64,000 nucleotides of DNA from an uncultured Bacillota bacterium (GTDB lineage Bacteria > Bacillota > DTU025 > MWDF01), in assembly GCA_963823655.1 (NCBI GenBank), contig CAWGMK010000002.1:50688-114687 (forward strand). The letters run 5' to 3'. The notes beneath the pieces are model-generated. The model worked only from the letters and a program-made list of their open reading frames with translations, was not told the DNA's origin and did not search any database. The position numbers were made by a program, and so were the translations under genes. Shown one piece after another: positions 11,213 to 35,364 of the stretch. The number at the start of each line of letters is the position of its first letter. Positions within the stretch are counted from its first letter, which is position 1.

Positions 11213-11686
11213 TTTTCTCTCCGTTCCTCGCGGGCCAAGCGGTTTTTCTAAAGTATGCGACCGGCAAATTGAATAAATGGCTGCCTGCTCCCGCGCATCG
11301 GTCTTGCCGCTAATCTCTATTCTAGCAATCCGTTAAGTCGATTGTAATTAGAACGGGAGAAAGAATAAAGGAATATCCTAAGAACTGCTCATGAATCTGC
11401 GGACGAACAGGTGCGGCAACACGGACCAAATATCGGTCCACGACTTGAGGGAGCCTATATTCGAGCTTGTGCGCGCAGACCGACAAAGGAACTTGAAATG
11501 GCCTTTGGAAGGCATTTCTTGTTGCAGATTATGATTATTTCTGAAAAGTGCCATCAAACGTCTATAAAACATTAAAATAATTATTATATAATATATGCAA
11601 ATAAATGTGCGAAATAAGTAGTACAATAGGATTATCAGTTATGGAGCTAATCAGACTGAGAATAATATGTAGGAAGAGGAAAACAC

Positions 11687-12055
11687 ATGAGTTCAGAATT
11701 TGGAAACGGTATGAAGAATTTCGCGGTTGGTGCTGGAATTGGCCTGGGCTTAGGCGTAATTGCAGGCATACTGCTCGCGCCCAAGTCGGGGAAAGAAACG
11801 CTAAACGACTTCTCTAACGGGGCAAGGCGGATAGCCGAGACGGCCAAGAAAGATATGAACAACGTCGAGAAACAGATAATGGACAAGGTGGATAGCATCA
11901 GCGGGGCGATCTCGAAGATGGAGAGGAACACTAAGGACGGAATGGCAAGAGGAATTAGGAAAGCCTCGGATGTTGCGGAAGAGACTGTAGACGCTGCAAA
12001 GGCAGGCATTGACAACCTGGTCAAAGGCGTAGAGAAGCTGCAGGCTAACAACTAA
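11687..12055 (+). CDS. YtxH-domain protein
   Basis: FAVGAGIG...GILLAPKSGKET followed by an amphipathic helical region. Confidence 0.85.
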   Translation: MSSEFGNGMKNFAVGAGIGLGLGVIAGILLAPKSGKETLNDFSNGARRIAETAKKDMNNVEKQIMDKVDSISGAISKMERNTKDGMARGIRKASDVAEETVDAAKAGIDNLVKGVEKLQANN

Positions 12056-12097
12056 TAGGTGCCCGTGGCCTTCGCCCGGACTCTTGGAGGAATTTCA

Positions 12098-12496
12098 ATG
12101 TTCATAAGCTTTCTCGACGTATTAAGTATCCTGGCAATATGCATAGGAGCGGTTGCTGTAATCTACATCGTCATCGCCTTGAATCACTTCATAGGGTTTT
12201 TCAAGAGGCTTAATGGGATTCTAGATGCGAACAGAGTCAGCATAGACTCTGCAATCATTGCGCTGCCTGCAACAATAGAAAATCTTAACGGGGCAGTGAA
12301 AAGCATCAATGAATTCACAAAAAAAGCAGGCGTGGTTGCTAATTCCGTCGATAATGTTGTATCCAACGCTATATCGGTAGTCAGCAATACGACTGCCGGC
12401 ATCCTGAGCATCGGAAGAACGGCAACCGAGGCGGCAAAGTACTCTATGAGGCTATTCAATAGAAAGCCCGGAAACGACGAACAGGGCAACAGATAA
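12098..12496 (+). CDS. Membrane-anchored coiled-coil protein (YtxG/DUF948-like)
   Basis: GGAGG RBS, N-terminal TM helix then heptad-like region; adjacent to YtxH. Confidence 0.6.
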   Translation: MFISFLDVLSILAICIGAVAVIYIVIALNHFIGFFKRLNGILDANRVSIDSAIIALPATIENLNGAVKSINEFTKKAGVVANSVDNVVSNAISVVSNTTAGILSIGRTATEAAKYSMRLFNRKPGNDEQGNR

Positions 12497-12838
12497 GAGC
12501 TAGGCTATGGCGTCGTTCATGAGCGCCTATGTTGGACATTTGCATGGGAAACTGGCGACGCCAATATATTGGGTCTGGCCATCGATAATTCATTAATGAT
12601 TTGCCGAATGAGGCTATTTGGCAGGAGTGATATGAGCTGCGAAGGAGAAAGGTGAATATAAATCAGGTTTAAATACGAGCCGATCTCAATTTTTCATCGA
12701 AGTCTGATAGATTTTCGCTCCAGTTGCAGATGCAATAAATAGTGCAAATAAAATTGCATTAGATTATTGTGGCAATTATTTATAGTATTATGTATTATGA
12801 AATAAGAATGTATATTCACTGACTATGAGGTGCACGAA

Positions 12839-13103
12839 ATGATAATTCGCCTTGAAATCCATTGTGTCGAATTCCGAGATAATCAAGAACTACCGAACTT
12901 GCAGAGACAAGGCCCAAAGCTTGGGAAAGGTTTTCATATTCAAAAACAACAAGGCAGACGCCGTGTTGTTCTCAATAGCCGAATATGAGAAGCTGTCGGA
13001 AATAATAGAATATATCGATGGACTGGAAAATCCGGTCTCCATTGATGATCTAAAGATACGGATAAATGAAAGCATCGAAAAGGCGAATCCAGAAAAGAGC
13101 TGA
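12839..13103 (+). CDS. Phd/YefM-like antitoxin-fold protein, copy A (possible +1 frameshift near the start; alternative TTG start 12852)
   Basis: IVSNSEIIKNY...GKVFIFKNNKADAVLFSIAEYEKL; GAGGTG RBS before ATG 12839. Confidence 0.75.
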
Positions 13104-14057
13104 GTTGCTCCTCTTTCAGATTAGTCCTACCGAGCATTGTGTAGGCACAAGTAAGCTCGTCAAGCTTTCTTCTTTAGCCAACAAAACCAATATCACAACC
13201 AGATAGCCAGAAGAGGAACACGGAACAGATGAACTGTAGCCCACCATCCTATCAGCTGAATTCTCAAAATTAGGCGCAAGCTTAGCTTAACCTTCTGCAA
13301 CCTACCCAAGAAACTCAAAGAGCAACATGACACCAAGGAGCGCCGTCGCCCCTATTTTGCTTTGCCCTCAATGCGCTGGCTGATTGCGGTACAAGAAAGT
13401 TATTCGCCGTCCCGGTCTTCGCGCCGTTTCGGTTTACTTCCCGCTATTGTAGCTATACTGCCCACAGGACGCTGCCTTGCATGGTAGCTTGGCATTTCGC
13501 ATTATTCGATATCTGCACGCAGTCAAAATAAGATGTCGAGCCCAGGGAACAATCATTAGGCTTAACAAGTTGGATATTTCGCCAACTTCTCTTGCTGCTG
13601 CCTTACATTCATCCACAGCTGTTAATATGCACCGATATTGATGACTATCATTTATATGTACATATTTTGTAATATATATTGCCATATCTAGTAGGAAATT
13701 CGCATATGCGTAATACCTGTTGTTTATTAAATGATATGGTTCGGATAGCTACTAGGATCAGTTCGATGATTTATCTTAAGCGGGCGAAAGAATAATCAAT
13801 GCAGCATAATGCCCATTATAGTTAATAGCGCCTGCTATATACCGAGGGGCAACATAACAAAATAATGGCAGAATGAAGTGCTGCAGAGACTTAAAAAGCC
13901 ATTACGCTCAACAGGAGAAAACAGGGATACTGGAAATAGAAATGCGGGAATTTATATTATTGAATTAATAAAAATATAAAATATAAGTAGTAAAAATATT
14001 ATAATAGGAGTACGATAAAATTGTAGTAAAGGAGTACTACAGAAAGTTTGAGGAAAA

Positions 14058-14297
14058 GTGAAAATTGAACTGCGTTCTATAGTAACAGTCTCTGACATGA
14101 GGAAGAATTACAAAGCATGCAGAGAAAAGGCACAGATGATGGGCAAGGTATATATCTTCAAGAACAACAGGGCGGATGCAGTATTATCCTCGATTGACGA
14201 TTACAGGAAGTTGGAGATAGTCCTCGATCACATTGAAGGCAAAAATGAGGAGCCATATCTGGTTGATGAGGAAATGAAGGCTGTTGAGTATAAATAG
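14058..14297 (+). CDS. Phd/YefM-like antitoxin-fold protein, copy B
   Basis: IVTVSDMRKNY...GKVYIFKNNRADAVLSSIDDYRKL; paralog of copies A and C. Confidence 0.75.
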   Translation: MKIELRSIVTVSDMRKNYKACREKAQMMGKVYIFKNNRADAVLSSIDDYRKLEIVLDHIEGKNEEPYLVDEEMKAVEYK

Positions 14298-14501
14298 AAG
14301 GACAAAGCTGTAACGGCTGCAATCCGAACTAAATTGGAAGACACCTGGGCCTGGACAGAAGATCCCAATCACCAATAGGGGAAGACAGGCATAGCAAGGA
14401 GTCAAGGAAAAGCTCTTCAATGAGCTTGCGGCTTATAGGAGAGGCGATGCGATCAAGCGGCCTGAGATCCTTTTCTGCGAGTAAAGATTGGAGGTGCATT
14501 G

Positions 14502-14636
14502 ATGCATAAGAAATCGCTACTGAGTTTCCTGATCGTAATGATAATGATTGCGGTGCTCACCGCAGGGTGTACAAATCCTTTCGCCAGGGAGAAATCGATA
14601 GAGTTTAAGATTACGGTCCCTGACTTATCGAAGTAA
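14502..14636 (+). pseudogene. Truncated lipoprotein (44 aa), absent from the ORF track
   Basis: GGAGGTG RBS; MHKKSLLSFLIVMIMIAVLTAG-C lipobox, stop 21 residues after the Cys. Confidence 0.5.
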
Positions 14637-14934
14637 CGGAGCAAGGCAGAAGAATCAAAGATACTTCCACGCAATGAAGAAACCTACAGTACAGCCCCAT
14701 CGCAATCTGGGATCCCAAAATCCCAGCCCTCCGGTTAGCCACCTGCAAAAAATTTCGACACTGCTCTCACAGACCAGAAGCAACAGGTAAAGAAGAGTGA
14801 TGTTCTGGACATCAGAAAGAGCGTGACAGTTGCGCTCGGTCTATATACTTCTCGGAGAAATATTTCTGTAATAGAATAATTTATATATAGAATCAAAAAC
14901 CGTGATGACTTGGATTTCTAAGGGGGCCTCTTCA

Positions 14935-19672: not shown

Positions 19673-21563
19673 ATGAAAAGGATCTTCGTATTCGCCTTGA
19701 TGGCAATCTGCATTGTCAGCCTGGCAGGATGCTTCGAAAGGCCCCCGACGGCACTTACCATATCGGGCGTGGTGACAGAAGCAGCTTCGAGTGCAGTCAT
19801 TGCAGGTGTGACAGTCAATATATATGTAAATAGCGTCAAAGTGGACGAGACAGAAACGGGCCTGTCCGGGGTGTACAGCGTGGTACTAGCGGGCCTCGCC
19901 ACTGGGGCAGAGATCAGGCTCGATTTCATCAAGGCAGGCTATGTATCTGGCTCCGAGCAGTTCTCTAAGACATCCGCGACAAGCGTAGTGCTGGACGTCG
20001 AACTGGTGAAAGCCAGCTCAGACACATCAACCATGGGGGGCTACGCATCATTAATGAACCTGATTCCGCCGCCAGCCTCAGTAAGCAGCAAGAGCGCAAA
20101 GGTATACCCTTTGACGAAGATATCTGTTCCTGCTGCAACCGAGGTCCTGATTAAGCCGATGGTCGGCATCAATGTCAGCGAAATCAACGATGCCCTTGCC
20201 AAAAAGGGCACAAGCATAAAACAACAGCGTATTTGAAGCCGGCTACCTGGTAGCGGCTGTGCCAGCCGGCAAGACCGCCGAGCAGTTTTCAGCAGAGCTT
20301 GAAGCAGAAGGCTGGATAGATTACGTCGAGCCGAACAGCTATGCTCGCGTAAGCAACTATCTATCCATTCCGAACGATCCCAGCTTCTCAACAAAACAAT
20401 GGAATATGTACGCCACAAGCATGCCGCTAGTCTGGGATATGGATGACTTCAGTAGCCCGGTCACTATCGCAGTTATAGACACGGGCGTATGGGGAGATCA
20501 TCCCGACTTGTCGGGCAGGGTCTCAGGATATATAGATACGGTAACGGATCCCTTGGCTCCGGACAATGTGGACGAGATGGGTCACGGCACCCACGTGGCA
20601 GGCGTAATCGCGGCCATAGTGAACAACGGCCAGTACATTGCCGGCATGAACCATACAGGGGCCAGCATACTTGCAGTTAAGTCGATGGGTGCAAACGGTC
20701 TTGGCACTGCCGACTGGATCGCCCAGGGAATCAGGGCAGCTGCCGATGGCGGGGCCGACATAATCATAATGAGCCTCGGATGGTCTGACGGAATACCAGT
20801 GCAGACGGTCCAGGACGCAATCAGTTATGCCAGTACAAGAGTAGGGGCGATAATTGCCGCGGCAGGCAATGAGGGCGAAGGCCAGATAGACTTCCCCGCA
20901 AATCAGTCCGGCGTAATCTGCGTCGGCTCGATAGACAGCACCCTTGAAAAGTCAGACTTCTCCAATTACGGCTCCGAGATGGATTTCGCAGCTCCCGGAG
21001 GATCCGTATCCCCTGTTGAGCACATTTTCAGCACACATATAAGCTCCGTCGGCGGATATGTTGCAGGCCTGATAGGCACTTCCCAGTCCGCGCCTCATGT
21101 AGCCGCACTTATGGGAATGATGATGCAAAGCGGCCTGAGCGCTTCAACCGCCCTGGACAGGATTGGAGAAACAGCACAGTTCGATGACAGGAACAGCCTG
21201 TATTACGGAAACGGAATAATCAACGCTTACGCTGCGATGATGGACCTGACCATGGATAAAACGCTGTTCTGGCTGGCAGATCCTTCAACGGGCAACGCCG
21301 TGACGAGCGGATTCTACGGCGATATCGACCGCAGCTTCGAAGTAACTTGTGAACCCGGCAATTATTGGCTGGTAGGCTGGCTTGACGTGGATCAGAACGA
21401 GGCCTTGAACCAGGGAGATTACTCTGGCCTGGTTCCTGTAAGCGTCGGTGCGGGCAGCAATTTCCTGCCGGCCGTGCTTGAGATCAAGTGGATGCCAACT
21501 AATGCAATTGCCTCGACAACGTTGGGCAAAACAGTGCTCAGCGTGCCTTCGCAAGTTCACTGA
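19673..21563 (+). CDS. Lipoprotein subtilisin-like S8 serine peptidase, frameshift ~20230
   Basis: LAG-C lipobox, carboxypeptidase-regulatory-like N-terminal domain; triad VIDTG / HGTHVAG / GTSQSAPHV; oxyanion AAAGN. Confidence 0.85.
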
Positions 21564-21578
21564 TGGGAGTGGTAAGCA

Positions 21579-21728
21579 ATGCTATGGACTATCGCAGTAA
21601 TTCTAATCGCTCTATGGCTTCTCGGAGTAGTCACTTCGTACACGATGGGGGGATTCATCCATATCCTCCTTGTGGTCGCGGTAATCGTCGTGCTTGTAAG
21701 GCTAATCCGGGGCAATAAGATATTGTAG
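21579..21728 (+). CDS. lmo0937-family small membrane protein, absent from the ORF track
   Basis: MLWTIAVILIALWLLGVVTSYTMGGFIHILLVVAVIVVLVRLIRG. Confidence 0.85.
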   Translation: MLWTIAVILIALWLLGVVTSYTMGGFIHILLVVAVIVVLVRLIRGNKIL

Positions 21729-21975
21729 GCGGCCATAGGGGCAGATGATCCGGTGGGATGAAACAAAGTGACTTAGGCCGGTTCTTTGAAAAACGAATAA
21801 GGAAGAGATAAAAGATTGCTGATACAGCAATCGATGACTATCCAAAACTACACCATAGAAATGATTACCCGTATTATGCCTGATTGAACAGGATATGAGG
21901 AATTGCGAGGCCCGGTACCTTAAGCCCGGAACAGACCAGCACAGCGCGGTCGGTGATCAAATGATCAGACCGAAA

Positions 21976-22330
21976 AGCGGGGTCTTCACCGGGCAACTGA
22001 GAAGATACAATACTTCGAAAGTAAATTTCGTCCTCAGCAGGTTAAATCAGGTTTACGGGCGGGTGAAACATACAGAAGGCACAAGCCTAGGGGTATGCTT
22101 CTTTCCCGGAAAGGTAGAAGGTATGTTTCCAGCAATGTTGGGCGGCAGACGCAGCCCGAATGGCGGAGGTGCAAGCATACGGACTGGCGGCGGATCCAAA
22201 CCAGAACAGGGTGATGCCGCAGGAGAAACTTCCTGAAGCTTGAGGGCTGCTCGTCGCCGTTAACGATATCTGGCAATCCGAGCATGTTTGAAGAGCGATA
22301 TTTCGGAGAAACGATTTAGGTTACCCCGCT
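21976..22330 (+). ncRNA. Candidate large structured RNA or 5' leader, family not recognised
   Basis: Ends pair perfectly over 8 bp, enclosing several nested helices (see findings); no credible ORF. Confidence 0.55.
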
Positions 22331-22389
22331 ATGAAAGAAAAGCGAAAACTTAAAAGACGAAATAATGTGTGAGTTAGGAGATTGATAAC

Positions 22390-25300
22390 ATGAGAAGAAC
22401 CAGAGTTTTAACCGCGATCCTGATCGCAGTGGTTATGCTGGCCTCAATGCTGGTTATGGCTTTGCCGGCGCTTGCATCTGAGATTGTCCTTAAGAAGAAC
22501 ACGATGCCGGACAATGCGGCCCACTATGACATCGGGGACACAATCCATTACGAGATAATCGTACAGAACCCTGCGACCAATAACGCAACCAATACCGTCA
22601 ATTCTTTGACGGATACTCTCCCCGACGGGACGGTAGTGGTATTGGCGACCAACTTGGTACAAGCACCAGGTGCATCCAACACTTATCTCCTCGACTATGT
22701 CGTTAATGCCAACGACATGATATTCGACGAGTTCGGGGTGGACAAATGGAGAGTAACCAACTCCGTTAGAGCAATCGGACAAGATAGCTTCTTCGACGCA
22801 TTTAATGCTTATACTGAGAAAAACTCAATAATTGATGTACTTCCTTCCATCGACATAGAGAAGTACGTCAATGGAGAGGATGCGGACAGCGTTACAGGGC
22901 CGATAGTGCAAGTAGGCTCAACGGTAACATTCCGCTATGTAGTTACAAACACAGGGAATGTAACCTTGCTCAACGTAGCGGTTACAGACAATGTTCTGGG
23001 GCCAATAGGGGCAGTCGTGCCTTCACTGGCGCCCGGGGCAAGCTTCGAGTATTCTGTGAATGCCACAGCGACTGCCGGGCAGTATCATAATACCGGCACA
23101 GTAGTCGGCACTCCTGATTTGGGAGACAACCCGATAACTACTGTGACCGATTCTGATGACGGCCATTACTTCGGGGCTTTGGTAAGCATAGACATAGAGA
23201 AGTTGGTATCCGTAGATGGAATCAACTGGCTCGATGCTGACTCGGCACCGGGGCCGGACGCCGCCGTGCCCGGTACAGTAAGGTTCAAGGTCATAGTAAC
23301 GAACACAGGAAACGTTGCTTTGACCGGCATAGTGGTCCATGACACAGACTTCGTTTTCACCGGTGTCGCTACTGGCCTTGCGGCCGGCGCCTCTGATGAG
23401 AGCGACGTATTGACAGTCCCATCGGTAGTAGGACAGCACTACAACCTGGCCGACGTAATCGGCTATGCGGGTGCTGCATTCGATACAGATGAGGATGCCG
23501 CATATTATTGGGGCCTGGCGAGGCCTTCGATCGACATCGAGAAGCTGGTATCCGTTGATGGAATCAACTGGCTCGATGCAGACTCGGCACCGGGACCTGA
23601 TGCAACCGTGCCCGGGACCGTGAGGTTCAAGGTCATCGTGACCAACACCGGCAACGTTCCGCTATCCGGAATTGTTGTCGATGACACCGACTTCATATTC
23701 TCAGGCGTCGCAGCCAACTTGGCAGTAGGTGCCTCTGACGAAAGCGACATCCTGTCAGTGCCTTCAGTAGTAGGGCAGCATTATAACCTCGCCGATGTAA
23801 TAGGCTGGTATGATGACAATGATGTCTCTGACGAAGACCCTGCATATTACTGGGGCGTGGCCAGGCCTTCGATCGACATCGAGAAGTTTGTCTCCGTTGA
23901 CGGAGTCAACTGGCTTGATGCTGATACGGCACCTGGACCGGACGCACTAGTACCTGGTACCGTGAGGTTCAAGGTCATCGTGACCAACACCGGTAATATA
24001 ACCCTGACCGATATAGCGGTCCATGACACCGACTTCACCTTTACAGGCGTCGTTCCCACCCTGGCACCAGGTGCCTCAGATGAGAGCGACATCATTTCCC
24101 TACCTACAGTAGTGGGCCAGCATTACAACTTGGCTGACGTAGTGGGCTACTTCGACGATGCCCCGCCTGTTGTTGACAATGACCCCGCCCATTACTACGG
24201 CTTACCCGATCTGGACATCGACATCGAGAAGCTGGTTTCCGTGGACGGCGGCCAGACATGGCAGGACGCCGACACTGCGACCGGTCCTCATGTCTTATTA
24301 CCTGCAACAGTGCAGTTCAAGGTAATTGTGACCAATAATGGCAACGTAACCTTGACAGGTATTGTTGTAACAGACAGCGACTTCACATTCACTGGTGTCG
24401 TACCCAGCCTGGCACCGGGGGCCTCCGACGAAAGCGATGTTCTGTCAGTAGCCGCAGTATGTGGCCAGCATCAGAACTTGGCTAGCGTCATAGGCTATTA
24501 TCTGGCAATGTCTGCCACTGACCAGGACTATGCCCATTACTTCGGCGACTGCCCGTCGCTTGACCTAGAAAAGCTGGTCAACGGCGTGGACGCTGATTCG
24601 CCAACGGGTCCTGATAGTGCCAGTCGGCTCAGTCGTAACGTTTACCTATATCGTTACAAATACGGGTAACATTACGCTTACCAACATTGTCGTAACTGAC
24701 AATCAGCTGGGCGTAATCGGGACTATACCTTCCCTGGCTCCTGGCGCCTCGGCAACGCTTACGGATACCGACATCGCGATTGCCGGGCAGTACAGGAACG
24801 ATTCGAATGCCACCGATGGCCATGTATCGGATGACGATCCGGGCCATTACTTCGGAGCGGCCCCTGCAATAGACCTTGAGAAGTACGTCAATGACGAGGA
24901 TGCCGACTTACCGACAGGGCCTATCGTCTGGGTGGGCGACACGGTGACATTCGACTTCACAGTCACCAACACAGGCAACATCCTCCTGACCAACGTAGTG
25001 GTCACCGACGATGTGTATCGGCTTATCGGGACTATCCCGGCGCTTGCTGTTGGAGAGTCACAGACATTGACTATAACAGCTATAGCGTTGGCAGGACAGC
25101 ATACAAATATGGGTGCTGTTGACACAAACGAGGACGTTTCCGACACAGATCCTGGCAACTACTTCGCAAACAACCCCTGCGTAGACATCGAAAAGCTCAT
25201 CAACGGGCAAGACGCTGACTGCGCTCCTGGGGTAATAATCTGCGGAGACAGAGATTGCCTGCTCGTATACGAGTTCATAGTCACCAACTGCGGCAACGTG

Positions 25301-26901
25301 CCACTGACCAACATAACAGTGGACGATAACGTGCTTGGCCATATTGGTGACCTTCAGTTCTTGGAACCGGGCGAGAGCTATACTTTCACATAGGAAGAAA
25401 CGATCTTCGCGGAGTGTGGACAGCATTCGAACATAGGTACAGTAGTTGCTTATCCGTATTTGAACGGCGCCGGTCAGTTAACTGACGGCCCTCTGTTGAT
25501 CAAAGGTCAGTAACTGACTTCGACCTTGCATACTACTACGGAAAATGCACTGAAATCGACCTTGAGAAGTTCGTATCAGTGGATGGCGGAGATACATGGG
25601 ACGACGCGGACGCAGCACCTGGACCGCACATAGCCGCCGGCTCCATCGTAGAGTTCAAGTTCGTAGTTACAAACACCGGCAACGGCACATTGACCTACAT
25701 TGAAGTCATCGACAGCGTACTCGGATATATAGGGCTCATCCCGTTCTTAGAGCCGGGCGAAAGCTTTACATTCTTCGTCGATGACTATATAGCGCTTGCA
25801 GGACAGCATACCAACATCGGTACTGCGGTCTCTGAAAGCTGCAGCGCAATCGACACCGATCCTGGAAACTACTTCGGAGAATTCGAATGCATCGACATCG
25901 AGAAACTGATCATGGGCGATGATGCAGACGTAGCTCCAGGATGGATCGAATGGTGCATAGGCTGCACGATTAAGCTACGAATTCATAGTCACCAACTGCG
26001 GCAACGTGCCTCTGACGAACATCATGGTCACAGACAGCGTGTTTGGCGAAATCGGTACCATACAGTTGCTGGCCCTAGGCGATCATGTGACATTCACTAA
26101 GACTGCGATATCGTTAGCAGGACCTCATTCCAACATAGCAACCGCAGTGGCTGCATGAGGGCGCCACAGACACAGACTACGCCTATCTACTTCGGCGCAC
26201 TCCCCGGCATCGACCTTGAGAAACTGGTCAATGGCGAGGATGCGGACGTGGCACCCGGGCCGGTAGTAGCAATAGGCTCAGTCGTCACATTCGAATTCAG
26301 GGTAACCAACACCGGCAACATCGGCTTGGAGAACGTAGTGGTGTATGACGACTTGTTCGGCTACATCGGCGTAATCGACGATGCTGGCGTTTGGCGAAAC
26401 CGAGACGCTGACCATCACCCGTCTCAGCAGAGGCAGGACAGCACACGAACCTTGGGTACTGCAATGTTCTGCGACTGGAAGGACAGCGACTACGGCAACT
26501 ACTTCGGAGACGAGTTCATAGAGCCCGATCCGGACGAAGGCATGAGCATCAGCTGGTGGAGGAACCACAGGACCGATTGGGTCGACTACAGCACCGCTGA
26601 TGTCGCAGGCGACATATTCGACTTCCCGACCGAGCTTGGCAAACTGGCTGCAAAGAACCTGTTCGAAATATTAGGCGGCAAGATAAAGATGACCGACGAG
26701 AACGCCACGGCCAGCTACCTATTGAAAGCAGCGATTGCGGCCTTGCTCAACGCGGCGCATCCTGAAGTGAACTTCCCGATGACAGAGGCAGAAATAATCA
26801 GCGCAGTAAACAGCGCGCTGGCCTCGCTTAACATCGGCACGATGGAAGATCTGACGGATGAGCTTAACGATCTAAACAACCTGGGCGGGAGCATTGACTA
26901 G
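22390..26901 (+). CDS. Large secreted Ig-like repeat surface protein (DUF11/DUF7507-type repeats), ~1500 aa, broken by several frameshifts and one in-frame TAG
   Basis: Signal peptide; 11 repeats starting (I/L/V)D(I/L)EK...DAD...G...VTN.GN..L....V.D, spread over four track ORFs; helical C-terminal domain SWWRNH...LLKAAIAALLNAAHPEVNFP. Confidence 0.8.
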
Positions 26902-26954
26902 GCAAAGTACTGACCTAAGGGTCTAGTCAGCTATCGTCAAATGAAGATAGATGA

Positions 26955-26976
26955 GGGGAGGAAGGCCCTCCTCCCC
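26955..26976 (+). terminator. Hairpin, possible terminator
   Basis: GGGGAGGA / TCCTCCCC stem after the stop; weak U-tract. Confidence 0.4.
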
Positions 26977-27055
26977 CGTCTTCCAAGAACATCCGATAGA
27001 GTCCGGGGCCAATGACAATAGAGTGATCAATGTTAATAGATAGAGGTGATATTTA

Positions 27056-27715
27056 ATGCGCATCGTTAGGACGATGATGATTGTACTAGTACTAGCATTC
27101 GCACTTGCGACTGCCGGATGCGGAGAGCAGACCTGGTTCTTCGACTTCACTACCGCATCGGATGCGGACCTTGCCGAATGGTATATGGATGAGAATCCTG
27201 GAGCCTCAACCATAACACCGGATCCGGTCTACTGGGATCTGACTTCCGAAGGACTGCAACTCAGCTTCTACGGGGCCGCGGCGCCGTTCGCATTCCCGGG
27301 GGATTTCACAATGACTGTGGCCTTCTCCCTGGATGCTGACAGCAGCAACCAAGTCTACTTCGAATGCTATCCGGGCGATGAACAGGCCTGGGAACCTGAC
27401 AACTACATAATGAGCGCGTTCGATTATGTAGGCCTGACAGGCGGAGAAGTATGGTATGTAGGCGACAATGATGAAGAAGTGTTGAATACAACCGGCACCA
27501 TTCCAGGGCTGCTTAGATCAGGCGACAACACCTGGAAGATCGTCAAGCTGGGCGATGACTACGAGACATGGGTTAACGGCTCCAAGATATCCGATTTCTC
27601 GGCGGACAACGCCAACGGAGACTCGTACTATCCGACACTATACGCCGAACAGCTGGGCGGAACGGTATATTTCCAGAGCATTACCGTAGAGTATAAGGGC
27701 CAGCTGATAGACTAA
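27056..27715 (+). CDS. Acidic lipoprotein of a paralogous ConA/LamG-like family (copy 1)
   Basis: TAG-C lipobox; FDF...W; F.GDFTMTV.F; N.WKIVK.G..YETWVNG; YF.SITVEY.G. Confidence 0.7.
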   Translation: MRIVRTMMIVLVLAFALATAGCGEQTWFFDFTTASDADLAEWYMDENPGASTITPDPVYWDLTSEGLQLSFYGAAAPFAFPGDFTMTVAFSLDADSSNQVYFECYPGDEQAWEPDNYIMSAFDYVGLTGGEVWYVGDNDEEVLNTTGTIPGLLRSGDNTWKIVKLGDDYETWVNGSKISDFSADNANGDSYYPTLYAEQLGGTVYFQSITVEYKGQLID

Positions 27716-28041
27716 TGCGGCTGTAAAGCCGGTCGGACTCAATCGACCAATGGATGGTATGCCCTCCTGGGAGGACATATCGGAGTGAAAAGGCCCCTGC
27801 CGGATGAAATCCGGCAGGGGGCTCCAAAAAAAGCGGGGATAGGCTGAGGCCGGCTCGATGAAAACCGGGACTATGAGGGCCTGCAGCATGAAAGCCGAGT
27901 AACCGCTTTTCGAATGTGATCTCGAAGGTTGCATGATAATGAACAGCATAACGAATTGCCGGCGGCTTCGAGAGGAAAACCGGAGACATTACGACCATTA
28001 GCGAAAAGGGCAATCTTCGATGCCAGATTTGGGGGATAGAT

Positions 28042-29773
28042 ATGAAGAGGACTTTGATTTTAGCATTTGCGGTCTTGATGATGCTGGGCGTGCCGGCGAT
28101 GACGGCCGACTATAAGCTTTCGGGGACTTTCACGGGCGGATACAGCTACGCAAATGGCACAGGCGAGGACCAGCTAGGCCTTACCCTGGTGCTGGACTTC
28201 AATGAAGCAGGCCTTCTAAGCGCCCATGCGCCGCTCGCCCTCATCGGGGGAATAGGCATCGACGCGGGCTGGTGGGTGAAATATTCAACGATACCGCTAA
28301 ACGTGATAATTAGCGACAACAGCGTGACCGGCTACAAATGGGTGCCGATAGAGACTACTTTCGGCATGCTGTCGCAGGGCACAACCTCCAACAGGTTAAG
28401 CCGTGTGTGGGGCGATCTGACACCCGGGCTCAACTATGCGGCAGAGGCGTCCATGGATGAGATAACGGGATTTTACACAATAGCGGCACAACTCGGCATC
28501 GGGCTGCCTGCGGGGCTTGCCTTGACTTCGAACTTCGGCTGGTTGCACAATGCCGATGGCTATAATATGGGCCTCTCGACCGCCTTAACAGGCGCAATAC
28601 CCGTAATCGGGGGCAATTTCAAAGTGGCGGTGGGCAATTTCGCCGACCTTGATTTGGTATTGATCCCTCCGATGAATTTCTGGAATACCGATGACTTGCA
28701 GGCCTTCGCCGCATATGTCGGAGTATTGGGGATAGAACTTGGCCCGATAACGCTTAGCGAAATCTCCTACAAGATGAGCATGCCGGGCGTTTATGACGGC
28801 CTTTTCTCCTCGAGTTCACATTTCTATACCATGGACTTGCAGGAAGTTACGTCCAATATACTGGGGATATTCGAGCCCGTGACGATAGTCTTCAAGAACG
28901 GGCTGTGGTTTGAAAGCTTCAACTCTTCGGGCGGCAACAACGCCAATCTTGATGTGGCGGCAAGGATTGGAGCTCTTACGCTGGGGCTTAACATCGACTC
29001 CAAGCTTAACTGGGTATCAGGGCTGAAACATGCGGAGTATCTAAAGCTCAGAGCCGACTATGCCGGGGGCTTTGGCAACATCGGAGGCACGCTCGGCTAT
29101 AACTCCAACTGGGACGGAGTAGGTAAGTACGAAGTAAATCCCTGCCACCTACGGATCGGACGCAGCGCACGCAACCTTGTACTATGACTCGCCTTTCGGG
29201 CTCACCATAGAGGCGTACGGAGACTATGAGCAGTTCGGCATAAATACTGCGATGGCCGGCATTTATGCGGAATATGCGAACACATTCACAGCCGTACCAT
29301 ACGTCATAGACCTTAGAGGCCTTATCGCCGGCAGCTTCGACTATGAATGGGAGGAGCCGGCCACTAACGGCTTCGGTGCGATCGGGATGCTCAAGCTCGA
29401 TGCGAAAATAGACGCGTACTGGGATGCAGGGCTTCTGTTCATAACCAGGAACGCAAGCAGCCCGAACCTGTCATTTGAGCCGATAGCGAGCATATACGCA
29501 AAATACAGGCCCACTGGCATGGTTACGGTCAACGGGACCGTAAGCTATCGCTATACGCCCGGCGAGACAACGGAGCACAACTATTATGCAAGGCTGCAGG
29601 GGGATATCAAGCTAAGCACAAATGCGACGGCCTCGGTTTATTGGGGGGCTTCAGGCCTGAAGAGCGTAAGCAGCGGGGACGCCGATTATGCAAGGCCCTG
29701 GGGGGCTTATTTCGCGGAAGTAGAGCCGATGTACTGGGATACTTTCGGCGCTGAGTTCTCGATAAAATTCTAG
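28042..29773 (+). CDS. Putative outer-membrane porin / beta-barrel, frameshift ~29140-29177
   Basis: Signal peptide, amphipathic Gly/Tyr-rich strands across two abutting ORFs, C-terminal FGAEFSIKF. Confidence 0.6.
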
Positions 29774-34010: not shown

Positions 34011-34967
34011 CTATATGCCCGCCTCGATCGCCTTGGCAGCGATTTCGGACGGAAGGTTGATGCCCATTTCTAAAAGGGCTGCCGAGTTAATATAGATGCC
34101 ATACTCGCTTATCGTCTCATACGGCATTTCGGAGGCCTTTGCCTCCTTTTTCAGGATCTTCGCCGCCATCGCACCGGTCTGCTTGCCAAGCTCATAGTAA
34201 TCTATCCCAGCTGCCGCTACGCAGCCCAACTTCACCTGTTCCACTTCGCTCCCGTATACCGGGATGCCCGCTTCGCGCGTCTTCTCAAGCACCGATGAAA
34301 GCACGCCTACGACATTGTTGTCGGTAAGGTTCGACAGGCAATCCACTCCCCTTGATATAAGGGTGTCCGCTGCAAGGGTTACTTCCGACTGCTGGGTGAC
34401 TCCGATTGCCTCGATCGTAAATCCATAGCTTGCCGCCTTTTGCTGGTATTCGGCGATCGCGGACACGGAATTGGGCTCGCTGGTTGTGTAAATGATGCCG
34501 ATGGTAACGCACAAGGGCTGCAGCTGGCGGATTAGGTCCATCTGGGCATCCACAGGCAGCTTGTCGCTAGTGCCGGTGACGTTTCCGCTGTCAAGCTTCG
34601 CCTGCACGGGGTCGGTAATTGCCGTGAAGACCACAGGTATGTCCTTGTCCTCGGCGGCGGCATAGCAGGCTGTGGCCGAAGGAGTAGCGATTGCGCACAT
34701 CAGCGCCACATTGTTGCTGGAGAAGTTCTGGGCAATCTGGGTCGCTATGGCATCGTCGAAACCTGCATTCTGATAGTCCAGGGCGAAGTCCTTGCCCTCG
34801 GTGAGGCCTGCGTCTATCAGGCCCTGTACGAAGCCCTCCCTGCAGTTGTCCAGCGCGGCATGCTCCCCGTATTGCGAAATGCCGATCATCGGCAGCTTCT
34901 TGTCGCATCCCGAACCTATGATAAGTAATAGCGTAAGCATCAATACTGCGGCGATGTTCTTCTTCAT
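34011..34967 (-). CDS. trpX: ABC substrate-binding lipoprotein, probably tryptophan
   Basis: GSG-C lipobox, EHAALD, AIATPSA, FTAITDP, NVTGTSD; Trp T-box upstream; GGAGG RBS. Confidence 0.8.
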   Translation of the reverse strand: MKKNIAAVLMLTLLLIIGSGCDKKLPMIGISQYGEHAALDNCREGFVQGLIDAGLTEGKDFALDYQNAGFDDAIATQIAQNFSSNNVALMCAIATPSATACYAAAEDKDIPVVFTAITDPVQAKLDSGNVTGTSDKLPVDAQMDLIRQLQPLCVTIGIIYTTSEPNSVSAIAEYQQKAASYGFTIEAIGVTQQSEVTLAADTLISRGVDCLSNLTDNNVVGVLSSVLEKTREAGIPVYGSEVEQVKLGCVAAAGIDYYELGKQTGAMAAKILKKEAKASEMPYETISEYGIYINSAALLEMGINLPSEIAAKAIEAGI

Positions 34968-35071
34968 GTCAATTCCTCCGAAAATCATATTTGCCAAAAC
35001 CGTCGAATTTCGGGCCGCTTTGCCATCGCCTTGACAGTATGAACATATCTTTTCTCCTTCGCTGCTAGAAA

Positions 35072-35345
35072 ATAAAAAAACAGCCTCATCCCAAACATGG
35101 GACAAGACTGACGTCCTGCGGTACCACCCAATTTGGCTCTGTCTCCAAAGCCCTCTCATTCGCGCACACCTAATGCGCGTCCACCGGATAACGGGCTGGC
35201 CTCCCGTCGACGCCTACTCGCAGCATAAAGCCGCTTTCGGGTCGCCCTCGCAAGTCCATTCAATCAGCTTCCTAATGCGGCCCTCTCACTGTCGGCCGCT
35301 CGCTGCAATTTGCCCGCTGACATACTAATCTTGCTCATCGGTTTC
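35072..35345 (-). promoter_or_regulatory. T-box riboswitch, Trp specifier
   Basis: AAUUGGGUGGUACCGC T-box (35133-35118), terminator with U-run (35110-35072), specifier GAA-UGG-A (UGG at 35258-35256). Confidence 0.9.
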
Positions 35346-35364
35346 GTTTTTTCAATTGTTTCTG

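Follow-up and report, generated by a model that had tools for sequence, protein, structure and literature searches.

Directly 5' of a large surface-protein gene, and on the same strand as its ORF, the 64,000-nt stretch of DNA analysed here (hereafter the window) contains a 671-nt spacer (21719-22389), and the question raised by this locus is what such a spacer does. The original prediction concerned 21976-22330 on the + strand, which was read as one closed, multi-branched RNA of 355 nt and taken to be a new large ncRNA, something ribozyme-like or a cis-regulatory leader. On its upstream side the spacer adjoins a hydrophobic ORF of 51 codons (21563-21718), which follows a subtilase gene (20259-21563). 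On its downstream side, the sequence and the ORF list place a ribosome-binding site (AGGAG, 22376-22380) and an ATG start codon (22390-22392) at the head of a 759-aa open frame (22390-24669, + strand), and Pfam, NCBIfam and the ORF lists identify its product as a surface protein with a signal peptide and DUF11/DUF7507 repeats. There is a frame break near 24613-24617, and the same repeats are found in further frames, reaching at least 26901. The spacer itself is purine-rich on the + strand, with a GC skew and an AT skew of about +0.2 each.

As a description of the sequence the prediction was correct, since all ten listed helices are present where they were placed and 58 of their 58 pairs are Watson-Crick or G-U. 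The finer details also held, namely a GCAA loop, tandem G.A pairs within 22187-22220 and a gap of 59 nt before the ATG at 22390. The folding energy, tested against dinucleotide shuffles, was nevertheless no better than that of the shuffles: on the + strand the 355 nt gave an MFE of -116.6 kcal/mol against a shuffle mean of -109.9 (sd 5.85; z -1.15), with 13 of 100 shuffles folding as well. The - strand did better (z -2.47; 1 of 100). The best fold that was forced to hold all of the predicted helices reached -105.4 kcal/mol, 11 kcal/mol short of the free MFE and less stable than the average shuffle, and when the whole leader (21777-22389) was folded, its long-range MFE pairs differed from those of the 355-nt fold. 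Only two short local pieces carry a folding signal (60 shuffles each): 22060-22135, with z -2.4 on the + and -3.6 on the - strand, and a hairpin at 22136-22162, with z -2.6. By our own arithmetic, chance alone should supply about 3.5 perfect 8-bp inverted pairs per 680 nt. The ten helices are thus no more than chance gives, and they serve as a caution that ten hand-built, nested helices in 355 nt, real as sequence, can fold at chance level.

Strain variants allowed the structure to be examined in a different way. Contigs of four public runs (coded X1, X2, X5 and X6) were compared over 21450-22650, all of them without strand, ends or expression levels. A 617-nt contig from a sediment metatranscriptome library (X2) aligns to 21781-22385 at about 93% identity (42 substitutions and 5 gaps), and a second metatranscriptome contig, of 185 nt, is identical to the window over 21777-21961; this presence in an RNA library comes from contigs of one study and may include DNA carry-over. 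Some features of the public data are recorded here and not counted as evidence: the depth of the X2 contigs (19.2 for the leader, 3.4 for coding contigs), the points at which the RNA contigs stop (21777/21781 and 22385), the gaps in X2 coverage (21737-21777 and 22393-22474), and the further public runs, 20 of the 24 listed, 6 of them recorded as RNA, that carry some words of the spacer in small shares.

Within 21976-22330, 20 X2 substitutions are listed, of which 15 lie at positions left unpaired in the predicted structure and none is compensatory. Three (22066-68) leave G-U pairs in the helix 22065-73/22121-29, and pairs are broken at 22323, in the closing helix, and at 22280, in the helix 22248-53/22279-84. 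The GNRA loop is lost altogether, through a 2-nt deletion at 21996. The variant is better fitted by a local hairpin at 22061-22107 (+ strand), the MFE structure of 22055-22135, which is an alternative to the helix 22065-73/22121-29. Here the pair 22066/22100 changes from A-U to G-C, a compensatory change, 22067/22099 goes from A-U to G-U, and an A.C mismatch at 22068/22098 becomes G.U (read by eye); all pairs survive, the other two changes being located in loops. Such a single compensatory event is weak evidence, because a different fold yields, by coincidence, another apparently compensatory pair (21865/22066) that uses the same changed base.

The same variant disposed of several minor candidates. 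The long ORFs of the spacer are not credible as genes: one of 113 aa on the + strand is frameshifted by the 2-nt deletion and has no Pfam match, and one of 83 aa on the - strand also lacks a Pfam match, and by our own count the 11 listed changes in it are not biased towards third positions. A 27-aa ORF (22160-22243), in which both of the changes in the conserved core (see below) are synonymous, has no ribosome-binding site and was likewise rejected. An invertible switch acting through the 8-bp inverted repeat 21976-83/22323-30 was also considered and rejected; the repeat is short, it differs in the variant, and there was no sign of strand-changing joints.

The variants do, however, single out one part of the spacer. 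As judged from contigs of all four runs, a core on the + strand with approximate borders at 22101-22292 varies far less from strain to strain than the sequence around it, and that holds for coding DNA too. X1, a freshwater DNA run, has a contig over 22109-22292 (184 nt) with a single difference, while its flanking contigs carry 19 differences over 440 nt and 24 over 297 nt (1/184 versus 43/737; Fisher p 0.0008; the flanks include coding DNA). X5 and X6, also DNA runs, supplied one 151-nt contig each (22085-22235 and 22120-22270), both with 0 differences. In X2, there are 2 differences in 22101-22279 versus 27 in the flanks (p 0.0009), a contrast that is based on the 29 listed of the 42 substitutions and would vanish if all 13 unlisted differences sat in the core. 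The parts most variable between strains include 21976-22100 and 22280-22341, the outer parts of the predicted element. The conserved stretch shows no folding signal: z for 22085-22292 was +0.17 on the + and -0.38 on the - strand (60 shuffles). A single closed RNA of 355 nt is thus unsupported, with its energy at shuffle level and its closing helix and GNRA hairpin in fast-changing flanks and damaged in the variant, and 21976-22330 is most likely the middle of a longer leader rather than a self-contained folded RNA.

Could the whole region be ordinary non-coding spacer, with helices due to chance and a core whose low diversity reflects sampling or population history? The energy statistics are at chance level, as would be expected of such a spacer, and so is the supply of inverted pairs. 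The sequence is limited to one species, and the strain comparisons are few, one of them with only 29 of 42 substitutions listed. Against this, the X1 contrast is strong on whole-contig totals, the contigs of the three DNA runs that match the spacer beyond 21900 all overlap 22120-22235, and the spacer includes a specific match to rRNA operon (rrn) leaders, described below, that is hard to get by chance. We consider this explanation unlikely. Separately, a recent sweep or recombination, instead of constraint, might account for the conservation seen between strains.

Sequence conservation without a folding signal would also be expected if the core acted as DNA, carrying promoter and operator sites at which a transcription factor controls the surface-protein gene. 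The rest of the spacer yielded no promoter, and there are several 6-bp palindromes in the core, although by our own arithmetic their number is about at chance level. The core, however, has no promoter-like site either, a search of 21400-22500 with the core included having returned 0 consensus promoters. Moreover, the RNA-library contigs span the whole spacer from 21777, and a boxA at the 5' end would be purposeful only if the region downstream of it is transcribed. Control at the DNA level thus seems to us distinctly unlikely.

The boxA in question opens the leader. The first 38 nt (21777-21814, + strand) of the stretch of about 610 nt that runs to the start codon form a module resembling an rRNA operon leader, with a boxA-like core, GGTTCTTTGAAAAAC, at 21780-21794. 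Within it is UCUUUGAAA, the core of the boxA-like consensus of B. subtilis, AUGAUCUUUGAAA; that consensus element is located immediately 3' of a small hairpin and is bound by NusB (PMC13753749). In the window, an imperfect hairpin with 6 of 7 stem pairs and a 24-nt loop (21747-21784, + strand) adjoins and overlaps the motif on its 5' side. Its stem is displayed in a chance alignment to snoZ223, no + strand terminator was called there, and the strain variant, whose alignment stops at 21781, does not preserve its 3' arm.

The resemblance extends to the organism's own rRNA operons. The motif GGCTCTTTGAAAAC is found upstream of each of the genome's three 16S genes, at a distance of about 170 nt, and the module aligns to these three rrn leaders and to three of the sister species G006, so that the window motif matches the boxA of its own rrn leaders. 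In G006, three matches of 38-40 nt all lie at contig ends, in the order promoter, hairpin, GGCTCTTTGAAAAC, contig end. A 71-nt query from the window found 8 rrn-leader matches at 85-86% identity in sister species, three in G006, two in G002 and three in G004, again all at contig ends; for 21777-21814 these 8 matches have E values of 9e-6 to 2e-4. When an HMM was built from the six rrn leaders alone, 21777-21814 ranked ahead of every other non-rrn site of the 2.3-Mb genome (E 0.0025), the runner-up being 27851-27874 of the window (E 0.14). As cautions, this E value is modest and the sequence of the module rich in purines. The window leader and the rrn leaders are alike over about 38 nt and unrelated outside them.

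These results are consistent with a model, to which we give an even chance, in which about 610 nt of the spacer (roughly 21777-22389), untranslated and rich in purines, form a leader on the mRNA of the large DUF11/DUF7507 surface protein, one that combines boxA-dependent Nus anti-termination with a conserved, cis-acting core. The leader could be either a true 5' leader or an intercistronic spacer of this mRNA. It would open with the hairpin, followed by the boxA of the rRNA-operon type; NusB and S10 would bind boxA on the nascent RNA and, together with NusG and NusA, render RNA polymerase resistant to termination. The modified polymerase could then cross 600 nt of untranslated RNA and a long, repeat-rich gene while escaping Rho-dependent or hairpin-driven termination. 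Genes for Rho (543 bits; cut-off 509) and NusB are present in the genome. A Pfam scan of 25 neighbouring ORFs found no gene for a NusG paralogue of the LoaP/RfaH type, and no + strand terminator was called in the region. The option of a cis-regulatory leader, included in the original prediction, thus fits the gene strand, the RNA-library contig, the rRNA-type boxA module and the conservation of the core between strains.

The arrangement has parallels. In the rrn boxA systems of E. coli and B. subtilis the short U-rich motif comes just after a small hairpin, close to the start of a long untranslated transcript, and the window has a candidate for such an arrangement, with an imperfect hairpin ahead of its motif. 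The boxA elements of rrn, suhB and CRISPR transcripts protect untranslated RNA from Rho (PMC5725501; PMC13753749), and the same logic is proposed here. According to PMC5725501, boxA ahead of non-rRNA genes is established in gamma-proteobacteria, for example at suhB, CRISPR arrays and a few other loci. Unlike the rrn elements, the window motif lies about 600 nt from the start codon of a surface-protein gene, in an uncultured lineage outside the proteobacteria, and the likeness is one of sequence only. A non-exhaustive search of the boxA and anti-termination literature found no mention of boxA ahead of surface-protein genes. BoxA before non-rRNA genes is already known; what would be notable is a boxA-bearing leader in this host lineage, at this distance from the start codon and with an unexplained conserved core. 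If the boxA reading is true, rRNA-style anti-termination by Nus factors operates on a protein-coding surface gene outside the proteobacteria.

The strand of the transcript needs consideration, since the contigs are strandless. An independent small RNA, possibly encoded on the - strand and antisense to the leader, might end at the perfect 8-bp hairpin with a 3-nt loop at 21814-21832, which on the - strand (21832-21814) reads as terminator-like, with a T-run, and on the + strand is a hairpin 19 nt after boxA. This is the only terminator-like site in the region, and the better folding of the - strand over the 355 nt points the same way. One such site found compares with 1.1 expected in shuffles, however, so that it is insignificant by itself, and the - strand of the core gives no folding signal. 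The A-to-G changes of the variant in the hairpin 22061-22107 give G-U pairs on + strand RNA only, those on the - strand being A.C mismatches, and both boxA and the gene lie on the + strand. An antisense RNA is therefore, in our judgement, very unlikely.

In the boxA-plus-core model, the core (about 190 nt) would be a near-invariant element acting in cis on its own mRNA. Our best guess is that it serves as a platform for a protein or for ribosomes that sets the stability or translation of the mRNA; the variable flanks would supply local hairpins only, such as 22061-22107. Its role must be a guess, because the core folds at z +0.17 and the leader does not pair with the ribosome-binding site: the best duplex reached -14.1 kcal/mol, whereas shuffles averaged -17.1 and 189 of 200 did as well or better. 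Among the features that might suit a platform are several short hairpins and a perfect Shine-Dalgarno-like sequence, GGAGGTG (GGAGGUG in the RNA), at 22165-22171 on the + strand, which is not followed by ATG, GTG or TTG at the usual spacing. We infer from its sequence that it could pair with the 16S 3' end.

Shine-Dalgarno-like sequences of this kind have a precedent. STAB-SD elements lack a start codon, bind 30S subunits and stabilise the mRNA; such 5' stabilisers were reportedly described for Bacillus by Agaisse and Lereclus in 1996. Like these elements, which belong to leaders of highly expressed secreted proteins, the motif at 22165-22171 lies far upstream in a secreted protein's leader and has no start codon to go with it; the likeness goes no further than resemblance. 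STAB-SD alone is insufficient as an explanation, because a motif of 7 nt cannot account for conservation over about 190 nt.

We next consider whether the spacer belongs to a known RNA family. At the gathering score, Rfam 15 returned a single match in the whole window, a T-box at 35095-35347 on the - strand. A permissive scan (E<=10) of 21700-22450 gave 3 chance matches of 15-16 bits, with intron families absent among them, and one of the core (22060-22300) gave only 2 chance matches. No known-family match appeared at the locus, in line with the original observation that the element carries no hallmark of RNase P, tmRNA, a T-box or a SAM, c-di-GMP or c-di-AMP riboswitch. Its suggested ribozyme-like nature is unsupported, given the shuffle-level folding energy and the lack of an intron family among the matches at E<=10. 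OLE, GOLLD, HEARO, ROOL and raiA are large structured bacterial ncRNAs in Rfam that are conserved across many species with covariation. The predicted element is similar to these in its size of a few hundred nt, its intergenic position and its purine-rich joiners, but unlike them it is confined to one species and has neither a folding-energy signal nor a family match.

Searches for homologues had a similar outcome. The spacer is single-copy in its own genome, and in a DNA search of 40 relatives only the rrn-leader-like matches of 38-40 nt were significant. In 400 genomes of the phylum there were only chance matches of at most 44 nt (best E 0.0019), and none was found in plasmids or phages. A protein search of JGI metagenome contigs produced 130 pattern matches and 0 relatives; a 20-mer of the core had 1 match there, shown to be due to chance, and a 22-mer of the core had 0 matches in species-representative genomes. 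With no homologue of the spacer found outside the species in these searches, there is no cross-species covariation to weigh. Of the three outcomes named in advance as speaking against the prediction, two thus came about, an energy at shuffle level and a lack of covariation, the latter for want of homologues; the third, a match to a known Rfam family, did not.

The surface protein itself does have relatives, and their leaders provide an instructive comparison. Orthologues of its N-terminal part, at 46-49% identity, occur in 3 of 6 genomes of the same genus, with a further one, at 50%, in a groundwater MAG. Four orthologue copies within the genus have upstream spacers of 580-1080 nt. In the sister orthologues (G001, G003 and G005) a c-di-GMP-II aptamer and a terminator are followed by a purine-rich leader of 320-365 nt; there are 5 aptamer matches at three loci, of 46.7-65.8 bits, 3 of which exceed the 53.5-bit cut-off. 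The aptamer was found in 3 of the 7 genomes of the genus. In the window's species, RF01786 (c-di-GMP-II; cut-off 53.5 bits) is unmatched both in the spacer at E<=10 and across the genome at E<=1, while there are 5 GGDEF-domain matches and three c-di-GMP-I riboswitches elsewhere in the genome. No credible alignment was obtained between the window leader and four sister leaders (0 BLAST matches at E<=1), and the sister species' surface-gene leaders in turn gave 0 matches to the rrn-like module at E<=10. A Shine-Dalgarno-like GG.GGTG and short upstream ORFs, common to the sister leaders and L061 in a by-eye reading, were discarded, the alignment being inconsistent.

Class II c-di-GMP riboswitches of C. 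difficile are described as turning adhesin genes ON, with a group I ribozyme under the control of one such riboswitch (PMC11477304). As in the leaders of CD2831 and CD3246 and of the sister species, the window has a long leader before a secreted repeat adhesin; unlike them, its spacer and genome lack a c-di-GMP-II aptamer, and the leaders do not align. Closest to the idea of a ribozyme is Cdi2_1 of C. difficile, a c-di-GMP-II aptamer in tandem with a self-splicing group I ribozyme, in which a structured RNA of several hundred nt separates a second-messenger sensor from a surface-protein gene (PMC11477304). An allosteric group I ribozyme of this type was not recovered here, neither an intron family (E<=10, spacer) nor an adjacent c-di-GMP-II aptamer having been found. 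Nor do the sister loci contain one at E<=0.1, where intron-family matches numbered 0 and the aptamers are followed by ordinary terminators instead of a ribozyme.

This comparison raises the possibility of a new structured regulatory RNA, riboswitch- or ribozyme-like, whose core senses a ligand or a protein and has replaced the c-di-GMP-II riboswitch of the sister species. The core is near-invariant between strains, is explained by no known Rfam family and sits where the sister species hold their aptamer, in a species with GGDEF domains and c-di-GMP-I riboswitches and no c-di-GMP-II; one local hairpin shows a compensatory change. Much of the evidence above runs counter to it: the energies of both the 355 nt (z -1.15) and the core are at shuffle level, the predicted long-range pairs shift with the borders chosen, the closing helix and GNRA loop are damaged in the variant, and neither a terminator nor a platform sequestering the ribosome-binding site was found. 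With homologues in other species not found, there is no covariation to call on, and the second apparent compensatory pair, 21865/22066, demonstrates that chance coincidences occur. We therefore regard such an RNA as improbable. A more specific version, in which the core is a new, lineage-specific sensing RNA that arose by an aptamer swap from c-di-GMP-II and works inside the boxA-modified, termination-resistant complex, appears to us a shade less probable again.

Returning to the boxA-plus-core leader, its occurrence alongside the sister loci means that within one genus, and for one family of adhesin genes, the leader seems to be either a c-di-GMP-II riboswitch or boxA plus a core. Such either-or leaders within a single genus would offer a compact system in which to study the exchange of regulatory leaders.

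Riboswitches of the c-di-GMP-II class, together with terminators, are present in three species of the same genus, where they are grouped at surface-protein loci. Covariance-model matches on the minus strand were obtained at the sister-species loci L040 (1780-1862, 5899-5984 and 8125-8205), L041 (4257-4339) and L042 (3565-3648), and in the sister genome G005 (G005:C122:7448-7529). Four of these riboswitches lie 320-365 nt upstream of genes orthologous to the one for the surface protein in the window. No c-di-GMP-II riboswitch was detected in the window's own species, nor in three further species of the genus. By eye, GATGAT and GGCCGGTT, as well as a word similar to GGTGAAAC, occur both in window 21743-21795 and in the sister-species riboswitches, where they lie in the 3' half and the terminator. 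This segment, which gave no riboswitch match with the covariance model, could be a deletion relic.

Visual inspection of the sister-species leaders also suggested candidate short upstream ORFs. Those of the G001b gene copy and of G003 (at L040 and L041) carry a Shine-Dalgarno-like word, GGCGGGTGG/GGCAGGTGG, about 100 nt upstream of the start codons, and an upstream ORF of 26 codons begins 8-9 nt past it. The two predicted peptides resemble each other by eye, and the leader of the other gene copy, G001a, has a 17-codon ORF at the corresponding position.

The surface protein of the window (22390-27715), called giant in the original prediction, is broken into at least four successive frames (22390-24669, 24617-25393, 25579-26100 and 26155-26901), all of which contain the same DUF7507/DUF11 repeats; one of the frame breaks falls near 24613-24617. 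Upstream of the gene, window 21563-21718 is a hydrophobic ORF of 51 codons, for which Pfam and NCBIfam gave no match in frame. Its middle part (21615-21680) matched many unrelated contigs at less than 90% identity, in all four public sequencing runs whose contigs were compared with window 21450-22650. Since so many unrelated contigs match this part, the ORF belongs to a widespread family of small membrane proteins.

A second motif resembling the rRNA-operon leaders, GGCCGGCTCGATGAAAACCGGGA, was noted within 27793-27880, downstream of a strong hairpin (27793-27822), in the spacer upstream of an unknown ORF (28042-29187). Against the profile HMM built from six rRNA-operon leaders, 27851-27874 scored an E-value of 0.14, which is not significant.

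Elsewhere in the window, about 3.6 kb (11270-14900) is devoid of any ORF of at least 150 aa and gave neither an Rfam nor a tRNA match. This stretch adjoins a tyrosyl-tRNA synthetase gene, at which a T-box was looked for and not found. A T-box leader (102 bits) is present at 35095-35347 on the minus strand, where it precedes a gene for an ABC substrate-binding protein (34011-35159, minus strand) that is followed downstream by permease and ATPase genes. The start annotated for this ORF falls inside the T-box, so the true start of the ORF probably lies further in.
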